This document shows positions 1 through 54,529 of a stretch of DNA of 64,000 nucleotides, piece by piece. How positions within the stretch are numbered: the first letter of the stretch is position 1; every line of letters begins with the position of its first letter. The notes under the pieces are model-generated. The model searched no databases. It was not told the DNA's origin and was given only the letters and a program-made list of their open reading frames with translations. The stretch lies in assembly GCF_054482595.1 (NCBI RefSeq), contig NZ_CM137008.1, one strand, 5' to 3'. The translations under genes were made by a program, and so were the position numbers.

Positions 1-2940
1 GGAGGCGTGTTAGTCGATGAGAACAATAGCGCAGCAGGCTATGGAGATGGTCCTTCCTCTGCGGCGGGTGGCTTTATGTATCTCGGCTTAAGTGAAGTTA
101 CCTTTGATATTGCCGACGGAAAAACGCTGGTTATTGGCAATACAGAGAATGACGGAGCTGTTGACTCTATTGCTGGTACCGGGTTAATCACCAAAACAGG
201 TTCCGGCGATCTGGTACTTAATGCAGATAACAATGACTTTACTGGTGAGATGCAGATTGAAAACGGTGAAGTTATCCTGGGCCGCAGCAACTCCCTGATG
301 AATGTCGGCGATACTCATTGCCAGGACGATCCGCAAGACTGCTACGGTCTGACGATAGGGAGTATTGATAAGTACCAGAATCAGGCAGAGCTAAATGTTG
401 GCTCCACCCAACAAACTTTTGTGCACTCATTGACGGGCTTTCAGAATGGTACTTTAAATATCGATGCTGGTGGCAATGTTACTGTTAATGAAGGCAGTTT
501 TGCTGGCACCATCGAAGGTGCTGGTCAGCTCACCATTGCGCAAAACGGCAGCTATGTGCTGGCGGGAGCGTCGTCGATGGCGCTAACCGGCGATATAGTG
601 GTGGATGCTGGTGCGGTGCTTTCGCTGGAAGGCGACGCGGCAGATCTTGCCGCTCTCCAGGACGATCCGCAGTCGATCGTTTTAAACGGCGGTGTGCTCG
701 ATCTCTCTGATTTCTCCACCTGGCAGAGCGGTACATCATACAAAGATGGCCTTGAAGTCAGCGGCAGCAGCGGAACGGTTATCGGCAGTCAGGATGTGGT
801 AGATCTTGCAGGCGGAAACGATATGCATATCGGCGGTGACGGGAAAGATGGCGTCTACGTGGTGATCGATGCGGGTGACGGGCAGGTCCGCCTGGCAAAT
901 GACAATCAATACCTCGGCACAACGCAAATCGCCTCCGGTACGCTGATGGTGAGCGACAACTCGCAGCTTGGAGATACCCATTACAACCGCCAGGTTATCT
1001 TTACCGATAATCAACAAGAAAGCGTGATGGAGATTACTGCCAATGTCGATACTCGCTCTACAACGACTGAGCATGGGCGTGATATTGAAATGCGCGCCGA
1101 CGGTGAAGTGGCAGTTGATGCGGGGGTAGACACGCAGTGGGGCGCACTGATGGCTGACAGCAGCGGGCAACATCAGGATGAGGGTAGCACATTGACGAAA
1201 ACGGGGGCGGGTACACTGGAGCTGACCGCCAGCGGTACAACGCAGTCAGCGGTGAGAGTAGAAGAGGGCACGCTGCAAGGTGATGTTGCGGATATCTTCC
1301 CTTATGCTTCGTCGCTATGGGTCGGTGACGGGGCAACGTTCGTTACTGGCGCGGATCAGGATATTCAGTCAATTGATGCTACTTCCAGCGGCACTATCGA
1401 CATCAGCAATGGTACGGTTTTGCGCCTGACCGGGCAGGATACTTCCGTCGACCTTGATGCCTCACTGTTTAACGGCGATGGTACGCTGGTGAATGCCACC
1501 GATGGCGTGACATTGACAGGTGAGCTTAATACCAACCTTGAAACTGACAGCCTGACTTATCTTTCCGACGTAACAGTTAATGGCAATCTGACCAATACGA
1601 CCGGTGCGGTCAGCCTGCAAAATGGCGTCGCTGGCGATACGCTGACGGTAAACGGTGATTACACCGGCGGCGGTACGTTACTGTTCGACAGCGAATTAAA
1701 CGGCGATGACTCAGCAAGCGACCAGTTGGTGTTGAACGGTAATACTGCTGGCAACACAACTGTGGTGGTTAACTCCATTACAGGGATTGGTGAGCCGACA
1801 TCGACAGGCATTAAAGTGGTTGATTTCGCAGCTGATCCCACGCAGTTTCAAAACAATGCGCAGTTCAGTCTGGCAGGCAGCGGCTACGTCAACATGGGAG
1901 CGTATGACTACACGCTGGTGGAAGATAACAACGACTGGTATCTGCGATCGCAAGAAGTAACGCCGCCATCGCCACCTGATCCAGACCCGGACCCAACCCC
2001 CGATCCTGACCCAACACCCGATCCAATCCCCGCTTACCAGCCGGTGTTGAATGCCAAAGTTGGCGGTTATCTCAATAACCTGCGGGCGGCAAATCAGGCG
2101 TTTATGATGGAGCGACGCGATCACGCTGGTGGCGATGGTCAGACGCTGAATTTACGTGTTATCGGCGGAGATTATCATTACACAGCGGCAGGGCAACTGG
2201 CTCAGCATGAAGACACTTCTACGGTGCAGCTTAGCGGTGACCTGTTTAGGGGGCGCTGGGGCACGGATGGCGAGTGGATGCTTGGGATTGTTGGTGGCTA
2301 CAGCGATAACCAGGGCGACAGCCGCTCGAGTATGACCGGAACTCGCGCCGATAACCAGAACCACGGTTATGCCGTTGGGCTAACCTCAAGCTGGTTTCAG
2401 CACGGTAATCAGAAGCAGGGGGCCTGGCTGGATAACTGGTTGCAGTACGCGTGGTTTAGCAATGATGTTTCTGAACATGAAGATGGCGTGGATCATTACC
2501 ATTCGTCGGGGATTATCGCCTCGCTGGAAGCGGGGTATCAGTGGTTACCGGGGCGTGGTGTGGTGATTGAACCGCAGGCGCAGGTGATTTATCAGGGCGT
2601 GCAGCAGGATGATTTTACCGCCGCTAACCGTGCGCGCGTGTCACAATCGCAGGGTGATGATATTCAGACGCGGCTGGGTTTACACAGCGAATGGCGTACC
2701 GCTGTTCATGTCATACCAACATTAGATCTGAATTATTATCACGATCCCCATTCGACGGAAATTGAAGAGGATGGCAGCACTATCAGTGACGATGCGGTGA
2801 AGCAACGGGGTGAAATAAAAGTGGGAGTCACGGGCAATATCAGTCAGCGAGTGTCCCTGCGCGGCAGCGTGGCGTGGCAGAAAGGGAGTGATGATTTTGC
2901 CCAGACGGCAGGGTTTTTGTCGATGACGGTGAAATGGTAA
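1..2940 (+). CDS. yfaL: AIDA-type autotransporter adhesin YfaL, C-terminal ~977 aa (5' end outside window)
   Basis: Long ORF in frame from window start; Gly/Thr/Asn-rich passenger repeats, PDPDPTPDPDP linker, C-terminal beta-barrel-like domain ending in W; synteny next to ubiG/gyrA. Confidence 0.85.
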   Translation, partial: GGVLVDENNSAAGYGDGPSSAAGGFMYLGLSEVTFDIADGKTLVIGNTENDGAVDSIAGTGLITKTGSGDLVLNADNNDFTGEMQIENGEVILGRSNSLMNVGDTHCQDDPQDCYGLTIGSIDKYQNQAELNVGSTQQTFVHSLTGFQNGTLNIDAGGNVTVNEGSFAGTIEGAGQLTIAQNGSYVLAGASSMALTGDIVVDAGAVLSLEGDAADLAALQDDPQSIVLNGGVLDLSDFSTWQSGTSYKDGLEVSGSSGTVIGSQDVVDLAGGNDMHIGGDGKDGVYVVIDAGDGQVRLANDNQYLGTTQIASGTLMVSDNSQLGDTHYNRQVIFTDNQQESVMEITANVDTRSTTTEHGRDIEMRADGEVAVDAGVDTQWGALMADSSGQHQDEGSTLTKTGAGTLELTASGTTQSAVRVEEGTLQGDVADIFPYASSLWVGDGATFVTGADQDIQSIDATSSGTIDISNGTVLRLTGQDTSVDLDASLFNGDGTLVNATDGVTLTGELNTNLETDSLTYLSDVTVNGNLTNTTGAVSLQNGVAGDTLTVNGDYTGGGTLLFDSELNGDDSASDQLVLNGNTAGNTTVVVNSITGIGEPTSTGIKVVDFAADPTQFQNNAQFSLAGSGYVNMGAYDYTLVEDNNDWYLRSQEVTPPSPPDPDPDPTPDPDPTPDPIPAYQPVLNAKVGGYLNNLRAANQAFMMERRDHAGGDGQTLNLRVIGGDYHYTAAGQLAQHEDTSTVQLSGDLFRGRWGTDGEWMLGIVGGYSDNQGDSRSSMTGTRADNQNHGYAVGLTSSWFQHGNQKQGAWLDNWLQYAWFSNDVSEHEDGVDHYHSSGIIASLEAGYQWLPGRGVVIEPQAQVIYQGVQQDDFTAANRARVSQSQGDDIQTRLGLHSEWRTAVHVIPTLDLNYYHDPHSTEIEEDGSTISDDAVKQRGEIKVGVTGNISQRVSLRGSVAWQKGSDDFAQTAGFLSMTVKW

Positions 2941-50728: not shown

Positions 50729-51913
50729 TTAACTGGCTTTAATTTCTCCATGTGGTACGACAACCCAATCAATATGGTTTTGCGTATAAATCTTGGTTGA
50801 CTTGGAGTCGCTGTGCGCCATTCGTGCTTGCGGATCGATACCTTGCTGATCGAAAAGATACGCTGCTAATGCTCTAATTTCGTGAAAGGTTGGTCTTTCA
50901 TCTATCGGTAGATTGTCGCATAAACCTAGCTTGTCACGTGTGGCTGAAAACGACCGGCTCAAATAGTCCGGTGCAACTTGAGTAGGGTGTGAAACCTCTT
51001 TGCTGCGTTTAACCTGCCGTTCAGGGATCCTGTGAACGACAAACGGACTGGCCACATTATCTCGGCTATCATCAATTATTCGTTTCAACTCTTCACCAAT
51101 CGGTATTGCAACGTGTGATGCCTCTTTTTTTTGCACTTTTTGCCTGTGGATGTAAAGCGTCCCATATATGCCATTTTGTGGTTGTTCGAACCAGACACAT
51201 CCACATATACCGTCTTTAGGTTCGCGAATTGAGTAACGGATTCGCGATACTTCGAGTCGTGCATGTGTAGTCTGCAATGCTAGGTCCATTGCTGTTCTTA
51301 ACCATGGTGCAGCGGCCTGCCTGATAGCTATAAAATGCTCGAGTGACAGGCGCCGTCTTTTCTTCTCATCAGTCCTACGCATTTTTTTTCTGATGGCCGG
51401 GTTATCCAGCATTAGTGATTCATCGACCGCATAAGAGAACAACTTTTTAAGGAAGCTGACCTTTCTGTTCTGCACATTTGCGGATGCGCAGGCATGATAT
51501 TTATTGATGTAGGTATTAACGTGTTCAAGTGCAATATCGCATGCTGGAACATTTACGAAAAACGCTTTTACGCGTAGAGCGTCATTTTTCCAGTCATCTA
51601 AGGTGCTCTGGGAAGGACGTTCGTCTTCGATAATCCGGGTCATTATGTGATCAACATGTTCAGCAAATGGTTTTGCTTCTCCGATAACACCGCCAGATTC
51701 TCTAATAAGATTATCTACTGATGGAGATAATTCTGGTCGCATCCTCAGGTTGTACTCTCTGGCGATTGCAATGGCTATTGCCCTATCCTTACCTATATTT
51801 TTCTTCTTTCCGGTAATAAGTGTGAATTTATAAACACCTCGATCTTTATCAAAAATCAGATAATCAGGAAGATGTCTGTATTCTTTTTTACGTGGCCTTG
51901 CCGCCATGGTCAC
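50729..51913 (-). CDS. int: Phage integrase, tyrosine recombinase
   Basis: 394 aa; C-terminal catalytic region with HEIRALAAYL (HxxR) and STKIYTQ (Tyr); overlaps xis. Confidence 0.92.
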   Translation of the reverse strand: MTMAARPRKKEYRHLPDYLIFDKDRGVYKFTLITGKKKNIGKDRAIAIAIAREYNLRMRPELSPSVDNLIRESGGVIGEAKPFAEHVDHIMTRIIEDERPSQSTLDDWKNDALRVKAFFVNVPACDIALEHVNTYINKYHACASANVQNRKVSFLKKLFSYAVDESLMLDNPAIRKKMRRTDEKKRRRLSLEHFIAIRQAAAPWLRTAMDLALQTTHARLEVSRIRYSIREPKDGICGCVWFEQPQNGIYGTLYIHRQKVQKKEASHVAIPIGEELKRIIDDSRDNVASPFVVHRIPERQVKRSKEVSHPTQVAPDYLSRSFSATRDKLGLCDNLPIDERPTFHEIRALAAYLFDQQGIDPQARMAHSDSKSTKIYTQNHIDWVVVPHGEIKAS

Positions 51914-52396: not shown

Positions 52397-52920
52397 TTTT
52401 TATTCTCCGGTGCTTTCGGCATTACTGCCCAGTGGGTAATATTGACGTTTTCAAGGTCCCCGACCTGAAATGTCCACTGCCATTCTCCGGTTTCTTTTTG
52501 CCCCCAATGTGTACCAGAGAGAACGCCAGCCAATCAGCCAGCCTTCTCCATTAGCATCAAATAACAGAACACTTTCATGTCTGTTTTGTAAAAAGGACGG
52601 TACCAGCCGGAAGCAAGGGTACAAGCTGGTACCTCCAAGACTACACACAGCATAAAGTTGTGGTGCCGGGTGCCTCCCGGTGCCTGGCGAAGGTTGCACA
52701 CCAGGCGGGTGGGTATCCACAGAAGGTCGACTGTCAGCCTCAACCTTTACCCGCGTGCGCTGAGCCGCATTCACCACAACGCTAAGGATTCTCTCTGGTT
52801 GAAAATACTTAGCTGTTATGTGCCTGCTTTTAGCCACATCAGGCGAGGTGGACCTAGTTATTCCCCAACAACAAGGATTTGGTTATTATGTAACCCTCCC
52901 CAACAACGATAAGGATTTAT

Positions 52921-53010
52921 ATGGAACGATGTGTAGATAAGTATGAGGAGAGGCATGTGCCGTTAAGGCAAAAGCCTCCAGTTCCTCCAAAACCACCCAA
53001 GGAAAACTGA
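52921..53010 (+). CDS. Putative 29-aa proline-rich leader peptide (MERCVDKYEERHVPLRQKPPVPPKPPKEN)
   Basis: AGGA RBS 5 nt upstream of ATG; stop 7 nt before the 164-aa ORF start; see findings. Confidence 0.35.
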   Translation: MERCVDKYEERHVPLRQKPPVPPKPPKEN

Positions 53011-53017
53011 GACTAAT

Positions 53018-53512
53018 ATGACCAGAGACGATTATAAATTTTATATTCACTACTCTTATGTATTGGAGAAGATGAATTACACGTTGTTAACTCGTATTGA
53101 TAAATTAATAACGTTGATGTTAATCGTTCTCGGTTTTTCAGTTTTCGCCCCGTACAGTAATTTATTTATTTTCGGTTTGTTTGTTGCCGTACTTTCGGTT
53201 CTTCAGTTGGTCTATCAGTTCGGCCAGGAGGCTGGGATGTCTAAAGAACAAGCGAGGCATTACAAAAGACTGCTGATTGAGTCTGATACTCTTTCTGAAG
53301 ATCAGTTGCAAGCTAGGTATTTAAAAATCCAAGATACCGATAGTAATCCATGGAAATCACTTGAACGAGCGGCTTTCATTCGGGCCTGCATTTTTGCTGG
53401 TGTTCCAACTAAGTACGATCTAACAACCAAAGAAAAATTTATTGCTTGGTGTGCGGGAGATCTACCTCTAGAGAATGAACTAACGGATATTAATGATGAC
53501 CAACAAGCATAA
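53018..53512 (+). CDS. Small membrane protein with two N-terminal TM helices; SieB-like position (superinfection exclusion candidate)
   Basis: 164 aa, AT-rich, hydrophobic segments LITLMLIVLGFSVFAPY and LFIFGLFVAVLSVLQLVY; sits between early-left region and cI on opposite strand. Confidence 0.65.
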   Translation: MTRDDYKFYIHYSYVLEKMNYTLLTRIDKLITLMLIVLGFSVFAPYSNLFIFGLFVAVLSVLQLVYQFGQEAGMSKEQARHYKRLLIESDTLSEDQLQARYLKIQDTDSNPWKSLERAAFIRACIFAGVPTKYDLTTKEKFIAWCAGDLPLENELTDINDDQQA

Positions 53513-53567
53513 TCCAGTTCACGGACATGTACCTCCGAAGCCGAAACCACCGAAACCGAAGAAATGA
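53496..53567 (+). CDS. Putative 23-aa proline-rich micro-ORF (MTNKHNPVHGHVPPKPKPPKPKK)
   Basis: ATG overlapping the 3' end of the 164-aa ORF; see findings. Confidence 0.3.
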   Translation: MTNKHNPVHGHVPPKPKPPKPKK

Positions 53568-53586
53568 GACATAATAGGATTGGATA

Positions 53587-53655
53587 ATGAGTCGACCAAT
53601 AGAGCCTTTTCATATTCCACCTCGTCCCAGGCCACCAGATCCAGGCCCAAAGTGA
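53587..53655 (+). CDS. Putative 22-aa proline-rich micro-ORF (MSRPIEPFHIPPRPRPPDPGPK)
   Basis: AGGA RBS 7 nt upstream; followed by terminator hairpin. Confidence 0.3.
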   Translation: MSRPIEPFHIPPRPRPPDPGPK

Positions 53656-53678
53656 GGGTTACTGATTTTTAAAGAGCG

Positions 53679-53703
53679 AAGCGTCCGGTAGGGCGCTTTT
53701 TTG
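53679..53703 (+). terminator. Rho-independent terminator closing the membrane-protein/micro-ORF unit
   Basis: AAGCGTCC-GGTA-GGGCGCTT hairpin (one G-U pair) followed by TTTTTT. Confidence 0.6.
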
Positions 53704-53817
53704 TTGCTAACGAATCATCTTGGACTTCATATGCCCCAGGCGGCTACTTCGTGAGCGTCCTGCCTGTTTGTTGTTTCTCTTGGGTACATTATGTATCTCA
53801 AAGGTACATTGTCAAGC

Positions 53818-53854: not shown

Positions 53855-54529
53855 TTAGGCTTTGATTTTGTATCTTCTTGGTTTTCCTGAGAAAATCACA
53901 GTACCAATTATAGAGCAATTACCGTTGATCTTAATGTAAGGCTCAGGCCAGTTTGGGTTTAACGCTTTGAGATAACGCTGTGTCCCATCTTCTATCAACC
54001 TTTTGAAGGTGGTTTCACCTGTATCGTGCATCAATGCAATAACGTCGTCACCGTGGCAGGCAGGTACTTCAGGATCGACAAAAATCATGTCTCCCGGGCG
54101 GTACTCATCAATCATTGAATCACCTATCACCCGCAAGATATAAGTCATTTCCCCACAGGGTACAGGGCAGGGATACGTTTCTGCTGTGCTCAAATCAACC
54201 TCAGAATATCCAACTTCTTTCCATGCTCCGGCCTGTACCCATGATATGACAGGGACTAATGTGATTTGTTTATTAGTGATTGAAACATCAGGTTTTTTTG
54301 TGATGTTCGTTGTCTGGTGTTCTTGATCGAGCCATCCGACAGGCAGGTCGAAACATTTTTCGATGTGTCGTGCCATGCTGTCACCGATATTTTTAGTAGC
54401 ACCATCTCCCATAAACCTGCTGGTTTGGGTTGGCTCGCGATCAATCATAGTGGCAAAGGAAGAATTCCCGCCAACACCATCTCTCAGTTTTCTGGCGTTA
54501 GACCGCCGGATGTCATGGATTGTTTTCAT
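53855..54529 (-). CDS. Phage repressor CI-like (HTH plus S24 LexA-type autopeptidase domain)
   Basis: 224 aa; C-terminal ...VIGDSMIDEYRPGDMIFVDPE... S24 Ser/Lys peptidase signature; divergent from cro-like gene. Confidence 0.88.
   Translation of the reverse strand: MKTIHDIRRSNARKLRDGVGGNSSFATMIDREPTQTSRFMGDGATKNIGDSMARHIEKCFDLPVGWLDQEHQTTNITKKPDVSITNKQITLVPVISWVQAGAWKEVGYSEVDLSTAETYPCPVPCGEMTYILRVIGDSMIDEYRPGDMIFVDPEVPACHGDDVIALMHDTGETTFKRLIEDGTQRYLKALNPNWPEPYIKINGNCSIIGTVIFSGKPRRYKIKA

Follow-up and report, generated by a model that had tools for sequence, protein, structure and literature searches.

Proline-rich micropeptide genes around a SLATT-like membrane protein gene in a prophage cargo slot

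Why is a prophage membrane protein gene bracketed by three very short, proline-rich open reading frames (ORFs), and what could their peptides do? The question is raised by a small cassette within a 64-kb window, the whole stretch of DNA analysed here (64,000 nucleotides of contig NZ_CM137008.1, assembly GCF_054482595.1). In this cassette, a micro-ORF termed U precedes the gene for a 164-aa protein with two transmembrane (TM) helices, hereafter the 2TM protein, and two further micro-ORFs, D1 and D2, follow it. Judged from their sequences, the micro-ORFs are with high confidence real genes that form one paralogous micropeptide family. The peptides most likely regulate or partner the membrane protein, which is presumed to be an effector.

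Evidence that the micro-ORFs are genes

A preliminary description of the locus had reported three proline-rich micro-ORFs with a common peptide motif, and all three are present as described. The regular expression H[VILMA]P[PLIV].[PQK][RK]P[PE] matched exactly three times in the six frames of the window, at U, D1 and D2, and gave no match in 100 first-order Markov simulations of the window; the expression used in this chance test was built from the peptide family itself. The claim that the motif is kept while the DNA differs also holds. The 33-nt cores of D1 and D2 have different bases at 14 positions and still encode similar peptides (HVPPKPKPPKP and HIPPRPRPPDP).

For codon analysis, the peptides were anchored on the conserved His, which yielded 46 unique nucleotide blocks. 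The prolines at +2 and +7 are invariant in these blocks and are specified by all four codons (CCT, CCA, CCG, CCC). The His itself is conserved in 44 of the 46 (CAT 27, CAC 17), and the Arg at +6 is specified by both AGR and CGN codons. The mean pairwise difference at codon positions 1, 2 and 3 was 0.43, 0.37 and 0.69, respectively, with the third position near saturation. Nei-Gojobori counts on orthologous pairs gave pooled nonsynonymous-to-synonymous ratios (pN/pS) of 0.13 for D1, 0.23 for D2 and 0.14 for the 2TM gene; the ratio for U was ~0.20 over three cleanly aligned pairs, one indel-misaligned pair having been dropped. The codon pattern and these ratios confirm the coding selection that had been proposed, and all four products are under purifying selection.

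U, the 2TM gene, D1 and D2 are one transcription unit that ends at an intrinsic terminator, in agreement with the operon-like arrangement first described, and the terminator hairpin appears in the centroid fold. The gaps and overlaps are typical of translational coupling: the U stop codon precedes the 2TM start codon by 7 nt, and D1, which is in the +1 frame, begins inside that gene and overlaps its final 20 nt. The AGGA ribosome-binding sites attributed to two of the micro-ORFs belong to U and D2, and D1 has a weak GGA only as its Shine-Dalgarno (SD) sequence.

The same organization recurs in other phages. Homologues of the 164-aa protein were collected as 72 proteins from a set of 5.8 billion sequences and as 213 clusters (50% identity) from 1.84 billion (1.84e9) representative proteins. 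The loci comprised 51 from IMG/VR together with contigs of individual distant relatives and cultured phages, and about 60 homologous prophage loci, with 2TM protein identities from 100% to about 31%, were examined by six-frame scan. These regions keep intact micro-ORFs, the point on which the preliminary description had proposed that its reading should stand or fall. A U-type micro-ORF with an ATG and an SD sequence, ending 2-20 nt 5' of the 2TM start, occurs in nearly all loci of lambdoid and P2-like phages and is retained as 2TM identity falls from 100% to about 31-36%. The U consensus reads ..[DE]YEE[RK]-H-[MVL]-P-x-x-[QK]-[RK]-P-[PE]-x-P-P-K-P.. and ends in a short tail that is often acidic, and H12, P19 and P23 are invariant in an alignment of U/2TM fusions. 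Examples are the U peptides of a 32%-GC metagenomic phage (MNAPKPDAHKPINERPVPPPKPQRKS), a P2-like contig (MIRQNNEERGHILRKPTPPPRPPKK) and Salmonella phage Fels-2 (MSDSDNFHVLPRPAPAPKPEPGQDKK); in Providencia phage PSTNGR2lys, U is an annotated 38-aa hypothetical coding sequence.

Downstream copies number 0-3 per locus, and 1-3 where 2TM identity is at least about 55%; in all loci at or above that level, the ORF in the D1 position begins inside or just past the 2TM 3' end. One downstream type reads MS[RK]PIEPFH[VI]PP[RK]PRPPxPGK, or in a variant MSxPIIPNH[AV]PPFPRPPAPQPKPK, and the PIEPFH[VI]PP[RK]PRPP form seen in D2 recurs across many loci. The other type reads ..DRHxH[VL]PxxPRPPAPPxK or ..GPRPDS[HQ][VI]PP[RK]PRPxPRP[KR]. 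Two tandem motifs within a single ORF were found in D1 of loci L035 and L026 and in U of L034 and L039. The core common to all peptides is H-[VMIL]-P-x-x-x-[RK]-P-P-x-P.

When IMG/VR was searched with a degenerate DNA pattern for the D-type motif P-[FN..]-H-x-P-P-x-P-x-P-P, 54 matches resulted. Micro-ORFs account for 32 of them, all 32 lying within 114 nt of a 2TM homologue, and the other 22 are unrelated poly-proline stretches. The linkage of the peptides to the 2TM gene is obligatory. That the micro-ORFs are real genes in a conserved operon with the SLATT-like protein described below is judged highly probable. The peptide family occurs widely among lambdoid and P2-like prophages of Enterobacterales, Fels-2 of Salmonella LT2 among them, and has received almost no annotation. 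The peptides had no match among Pfam, NCBIfam, PHROG or PADLOC families, and a sequence search of the PDB with D2 gave no match.

Annotation of the 2TM gene is itself incomplete. In Fels-2 (L120, NC_010463 ~30.2-30.8 kb) and in Yersinia phage vB_YenM_42.18 (L121) the gene is unannotated, and opposite-strand ORFs are annotated over it (STM2733.1 and vBYenM4218_008, respectively). Both loci have a U-type micro-ORF upstream, the Yersinia one being proline-poor (..FHILHKPAPPEEKK..).

The membrane protein and its cargo slot

The AlphaFold2 model of the 2TM protein (predicted local distance difference test score, pLDDT, 73.5) has long helices at residues 3-41 and 47-90, separated by a short APYSN turn, and a helical C-terminal domain. 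Hydrophobic segments were read from the sequence at about residues 30-46 and 49-68, and the two adjacent TM helices form a hairpin in a small protein, as in SLATT proteins. A Foldseek search of AFDB50 returned 52 matches at E<=1e-3, with TM-scores of 0.75-0.82 to many stand-alone proteins of 150-175 aa labelled SLATT; the UniRef names of homologues P0022 and P0045 agree with these labels. Neither the 164-aa protein nor any of 27 homologues matched Pfam, and NCBIfam gave no significant match, SLATT_4 scoring only below threshold (12.8-23.1 bits against a cut-off of 55). This sub-threshold signal lies over the TM region and was seen in one of five close relatives and six of ten distant ones. Because the fold is similar and the sub-threshold SLATT_4 matches are consistent, without a significant family match, the protein is termed SLATT-like, rather than a demonstrated member of the SLATT group. 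Its PHROG matches are to families 6315 and 23697, which have no assigned function there and are not SieB. The neighbours of the 2TM gene are phage regulatory, recombination and structural genes only, and no nucleotide-generating or nucleotide-sensing partner (SMODS, SLOG or reverse transcriptase) was found among the neighbours inspected.

Table 1. Positions of the cassette components and of other features in the 64-kb window
Feature	Position	Strand	Description
U micropeptide gene	52921-53010	+	29 aa, MERCVDKYEERHVPLRQKPPVPPKPPKEN; ATG, AGGA 6 nt 5' of ATG
2TM protein gene	53018..53512	+	164 aa; SLATT-like helical hairpin and helical cytoplasmic C-terminal domain; presumed effector
D1 micropeptide gene	53493/53496-53567	+	24 or 23 aa, M(M)TNKHNPVHGHVPPKPKPPKPKK
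D2 micropeptide gene	53587-53655	+	22 aa, MSRPIEPFHIPPRPRPPDPGPK; ATG with AGGA/GGAT upstream
Intrinsic terminator	53678..53706	+	9-bp stem (5 G-C pairs) and 4-nt loop, followed by TTTTGTTG; terminator-like hairpin and T-run at 53678-53699
Slot leader	52811..52920	+	~110 nt; twin CCCCAACAAC-AAGGA motifs; conserved
Integrase gene	50729-51913	-	in prophage
LexA/cI-type repressor gene	53855-54529	-	followed by cro- and cII-like genes on the + strand
Sigma-70-like promoter	53788-53815	-	TTGACA-16-CATAAT, 11/12 matches; probably pL/oL
STnc100-like small RNA candidate	52587-52810	-	Rfam RF02076, 39.9 bits (below gathering score 47), E 1e-6
PDPDPTPDP linker	~1954-2030	+	within large ORF
Proline-rich stretch in lysis region	~63714	+	looks like embedded Rz1-type o-spanin

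The segment at ~50.7-55.4 kb of the window is an SfV/SfIV/KpLE1-like temperate prophage, whose equivalent in E. coli UMNK88 adjoins tRNA-Thr/proA. The cassette lies between the early-left genes and the repressor gene (Table 1), and at distant loci it likewise adjoins a Peptidase_S24 repressor. DNA searches showed that both flanks of the interval are common to many phages (SfIV, SfV, SfII, Kati and others) and that the interior differs. The interval is therefore a cargo ('moron') slot. In its full length of 961 bp it was found in 46 of 5426 complete E. coli genomes, where its sole annotated feature is a 'hypothetical protein'. Among 100,044 species-representative genomes scanned, the 2TM alignment gave 85 pattern matches and no confirmed homologue, whereas 2TM homologues are frequent in NCBI assemblies reached by other routes. 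The 2TM family thus seems to vary from strain to strain as prophage cargo and to be rare in representative genomes.

The leader upstream of U is kept in all cassette loci, even where the DNA farther upstream is unrelated, and phage DNA matches on the upstream side of the cassette cover the leader flank only. The same leader is found immediately 5' of other cargo, namely an SfIV gene (SfIV_36) and sieB in Hafnia phage Pocitis76, and the second AAGGA of the leader is the SD sequence of the first cargo gene, which is U in the window. Because the leader precedes sieB and other cargo elsewhere, U sits at the position of the slot's first-translated gene. The preliminary description had called the membrane gene SieB-positioned. 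This is correct for the place, as slot and leader are shared with sieB of Pocitis76, and does not extend to the protein: identification of the 2TM protein as SieB was rejected, with a BLASTP E value of 0.51 against the annotated SieB of that phage. A sigma-70 promoter for the cassette was looked for on the + strand upstream of U, leader included, and none was found.

Several other elements were observed around the cassette. The twin motifs of the leader (also at L002 2520-2620 and L123 1200-1300) resemble CsrA-type A(N)GGA sites, and a small leader hairpin, CCAC...GTGG, has undergone a compensatory change to CTAC...GTAG in L110/L111. Immediately left of the repressor gene, a strong sigma-70-like promoter with repeated GGTACAT boxes is probably pL/oL; upon induction this candidate would transcribe antisense across the whole cassette, reminiscent of sieB/sas in P22. 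The STnc100-like small RNA candidate has a terminal hairpin and sits between the early-left genes and the cassette, in a region annotated in UMNK88 as a frameshifted hypothetical coding sequence. The two other proline-rich stretches of the window (Table 1) are unrelated to the micropeptide family.

A possible role in trans and the alternatives

In the favoured explanation, the cassette would be a compact prophage moron operon in the order leader, U, SLATT-like 2TM effector, D1, D2 and terminator, and translation of its micro-ORFs would be coupled serially to that of the membrane gene. The peptides would be stoichiometric partners that act on the 2TM effector in trans. In the version preferred here, they would prevent a toxic pore-former from becoming active, as an antitoxin or gatekeeper does, and the unit would serve superinfection exclusion or abortive infection. 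With U upstream and extra copies downstream, peptide would be made in excess, and its diprolyl-rich sequence would tie gatekeeper production to translation status. This composite reading, a micropeptide-gated membrane effector for exclusion or abortive infection, is given about even odds (probability near 0.5). Within it, we infer that the peptides may bind the 2TM protein, that this protein may be toxic and neutralised by them, and that the unit may act against phages. A more specific form is put forward tentatively. In it, phage micropeptides of a class not recognised before (20-35 aa, core H-Phi-P-P-x-P-R-P-P-x-P) would gate a SLATT-like pore directly, and peptide and pore together would make up a minimal immunity or exclusion system, with arming tied to polyproline translation capacity through elongation factor P (EF-P) and translation status.

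Action in trans is favoured because the D copies precede no gene and are followed by the terminator, an arrangement that the leader role suggested earlier cannot explain if it is purely cis-acting. It is favoured further because conservation goes beyond the prolines (the invariant His, YEERH, PIEPFH), because the downstream copy number of 0-3 suggests a dosage requirement, and because a D-type peptide is fused in frame to the 2TM C-terminus in Pectobacterium. The fusion, in Pectobacterium aroidearum, joins GHIPPRPRPPAPPKAQN to the cytoplasmic C-terminus of the protein. A small gene placed first, with a membrane gene 2-20 nt on, is also the canonical antitoxin-toxin layout. A pore-forming effector with a controlling partner is proposed because the fold is SLATT-like and SLATT proteins are regarded in this way, namely as predicted pore-forming effectors of defence systems that need a controlling partner (10.64898/2026.04.29.721553). 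A role in exclusion is proposed because the slot otherwise houses superinfection exclusion (sieB).

Several observations weigh against this explanation. The 2TM gene had no PADLOC match, and proline-rich peptides are not obviously labile, as the classical antitoxin model requires. When U was joined to the 2TM protein through a (GGS)7 linker and modelled with AlphaFold2 from a paired 21-sequence alignment, no docking was predicted; because most of U was modelled at pLDDT <50 (residues 1-18 and 24-49), the model neither supports nor refutes binding. The Pectobacterium fusion still has an SD-ATG inside it and could have arisen simply because a stop codon was lost. Among the loci, L049 has just a 14-aa MPPEPK... 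remnant of U upstream, U is weak in L118, and L119 (near sopE) has no U. In the metagenomic contigs L111 and L112, the SD-ATG is shifted by one base relative to the conserved U frame DSYEDRHMPNKQKPKEPPKP. The frame offset lies ~100 nt upstream of the 2TM gene beside an A-run (caaaaaac), is identical in two independent samples, and could reflect a pseudogene, slippage or a sequencing artefact.

The alternatives differ in how much they leave to the peptides. At one extreme, the proline-rich stretches could be fragments of one gene, either a 2TM tail or a decayed larger gene, separated by frameshift or mutation. The +1 frame of D1 and its overlap with the 2TM stop would agree with such an origin, as would the Pectobacterium fusion and the 2TM ORFs that read through D1 DNA in another frame. 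The read-through was seen in P0002 (Enterobacter cloacae, 186 aa) and at L014 622-1191, where the 2TM ORF lacks its usual stop and continues in a non-proline frame (…SEAETTETKE…); the D1 ORF of L014 is intact in its own frame. However, the frame of the micro-ORFs relative to the 2TM gene varies among loci (0, 1 and 2) and each ORF keeps its own SD-ATG and stop, so that a single frameshifted gene is excluded. Moreover, U lies upstream of the 2TM gene, not downstream, the ORFs are under purifying selection as separate units, and none of the 21 length-outlier relatives retrieved has a proline-rich tail. Equally improbable, or slightly more so, is the proposal that the ORFs arose by chance and that their proline codons reflect an RNA or DNA element such as a CCUCC anti-SD. 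CCU-CCN proline codons do yield CCUCC-like strings, but all four Pro codons occur at the invariant positions, conservation is confined to codon positions 1 and 2 with position 3 close to saturation, pN/pS is 0.13-0.23, the simulated windows contain no motif match and the RNA has no significant structure. The one-gene and chance explanations are essentially excluded.

The remaining alternatives accept the micro-ORFs as genes and assign them a different task. As cis-acting leaders, U would set 2TM translation by polyproline, EF-P-dependent pausing, in that a ribosome stalled or terminating on U would cover the SD sequence and start of the 2TM gene, and the D ORFs would modulate the stability of the mRNA 3' end. 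The position of U fits such a role, with its stop 2-20 nt from the 2TM ATG and the 2TM SD sequence at or just past that stop; U is the most widely conserved copy, every peptide has 1-3 diprolyl motifs, and precedents exist in mgtP of Salmonella mgtCBR and in RAPP-type arrest peptides upstream of regulated genes (PMC7897499, PMC10951233). The fit ends with the D copies, which have no gene downstream. The cores (RPPAPP, KRPEPP, PRPPxP) contain no RAPP or RAGP motif, the distance from motif to stop is variable (the conserved His lies 9 to 17 codons before the stop), and diprolyl pausing alone poorly explains the invariant His and the acidic or PIEPFH N-terminal parts. RNA folds of the U and D regions were no more stable than shuffles (z -1.36 and +0.37). 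A leader function as the whole explanation is thus judged unlikely, yet a role of U in cis and of the peptides in trans may coexist, and EF-P dependence is plausible from the diprolyl motifs. Less probable still is that the peptides are independent cationic inhibitors of the ribosome exit tunnel or DnaK, similar to proline-rich antimicrobial peptides (PrAMPs), with the 2TM protein as release channel or immunity factor. The peptides are indeed short and cationic with a PRPxPP-type core, and insect PrAMPs score slightly above their own shuffles on the position-specific scoring matrix (PSSM) of the family, which can serve as a lead only (pyrrhocoricin 0.013, Onc112 0.053). These values are fractions of composition-matched shuffles scoring at least as high as the real sequence, and they range over 0.013-0.12 for insect PrAMPs and exceed 0.8 for Bac7 and PR-39, which fall below their own shuffles. 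The PrAMP sequences reach 2-8 bits against a family median of 34 bits, so the resemblance pointed out in the preliminary description appears weak, only marginally exceeding composition-matched shuffles. The peptides lack a signal peptide, both termini of the U peptides are acidic, the PDB sequence search gave no match, natural phage-encoded PrAMPs were not found in the literature, and a constitutive translation inhibitor would cost a lysogen. The resemblance to PrAMPs, like that to TonB spacers, is mostly compositional.

Significance and comparison with known systems

A prophage membrane-effector module with a small partner is of a known kind, and the micropeptide partner is a new family. Literature searches found proline-rich micro-ORFs described neither alongside SLATT-like genes nor in this prophage slot. 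Temperate phages commonly encode stand-alone SLATT-like proteins, as the 213 clusters indicate, and the DRT10 preprint explicitly names the control of SLATT effectors as an open question (10.64898/2026.04.29.721553). Here, the sole conserved partners are tiny proline-rich peptides that annotation pipelines overlook. If these peptides gate the effector, the cassette would be a very small, tractable model for SLATT activation and for micropeptide control of membrane proteins, and the short list of conserved bacterial and phage micropeptides would gain one more family. At <800 bp, the cassette can feasibly be cloned and mutated directly.

Among known peptides, the PrAMPs (oncocin, pyrrhocoricin, apidaecin, Bac7) share with the family a short, cationic, PRP/PP-rich sequence, as in HVPPRPRPP of the D peptides and YLPRPRPP of oncocin. 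They differ in that the similarity in residue order barely exceeds that in composition, that the U class is partly acidic, and that the cassette peptides are prophage-encoded, cytoplasmic, devoid of a secretion signal and always linked to a membrane gene. EF-P-dependent leader and arrest peptides (mgtP; ApdA/ApdP, SecM; PMC7897499, PMC10951233) are likewise encoded by a small ORF that lies directly 5' of a membrane-related gene and specifies consecutive prolines towards its own 3' end. This placement applies to U, with its gap of 2-20 nt, whereas D1, D2 and D3 precede the terminator instead. The cassette further differs from these systems in its lack of RAPP/RAGP, its downstream paralogues, its conserved His and N-terminal residues, its variable motif-to-stop distance and the absence of a Sec or YidC association.

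Type II-style toxin-antitoxin and abortive infection pairs with a membrane toxin also place a small gene first and the effector a few nucleotides later, occupy mobile locations and, in parallel with the cassette, vary in the dosage of the small partner. The putative antitoxin of the cassette is distinct in being a proline-rich peptide of 20-35 aa without a DNA-binding domain and in having extra copies downstream.

Compared with SLATT effectors, the 2TM protein has the same hairpin of two TM helices in ~150-175 aa, TM-scores of 0.75-0.82 and a weak, recurrent SLATT_4 signal in its relatives, and the cassette resembles SLATT systems in its carriage by mobile elements in defence-type slots and its tight coupling to a partner gene. 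It departs from them in the lack of a significant Pfam or NCBIfam SLATT match and of SMODS, SLOG, reverse transcriptase or any other enzymatic partner nearby, the sole conserved partners of the 2TM protein being proline-rich peptides of 20-35 aa.

The SieB/Esc system of P22 and lambda differs from the cassette in the sequence of its membrane protein, to which the 2TM protein shows no similarity (BLASTP E 0.51), and in the origin of its small partner: Esc is said to be an internal in-frame product of sieB, whereas the cassette peptides are encoded by separate proline-rich micro-ORFs. The two systems share the slot, the conserved leader and a membrane protein encoded on the strand opposite the early-left genes. 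Esc is also reportedly a small co-encoded polypeptide that restrains the SieB membrane effector, and a small partner restraining a membrane effector is the functional analogy between SieB/Esc and the arrangement proposed here.

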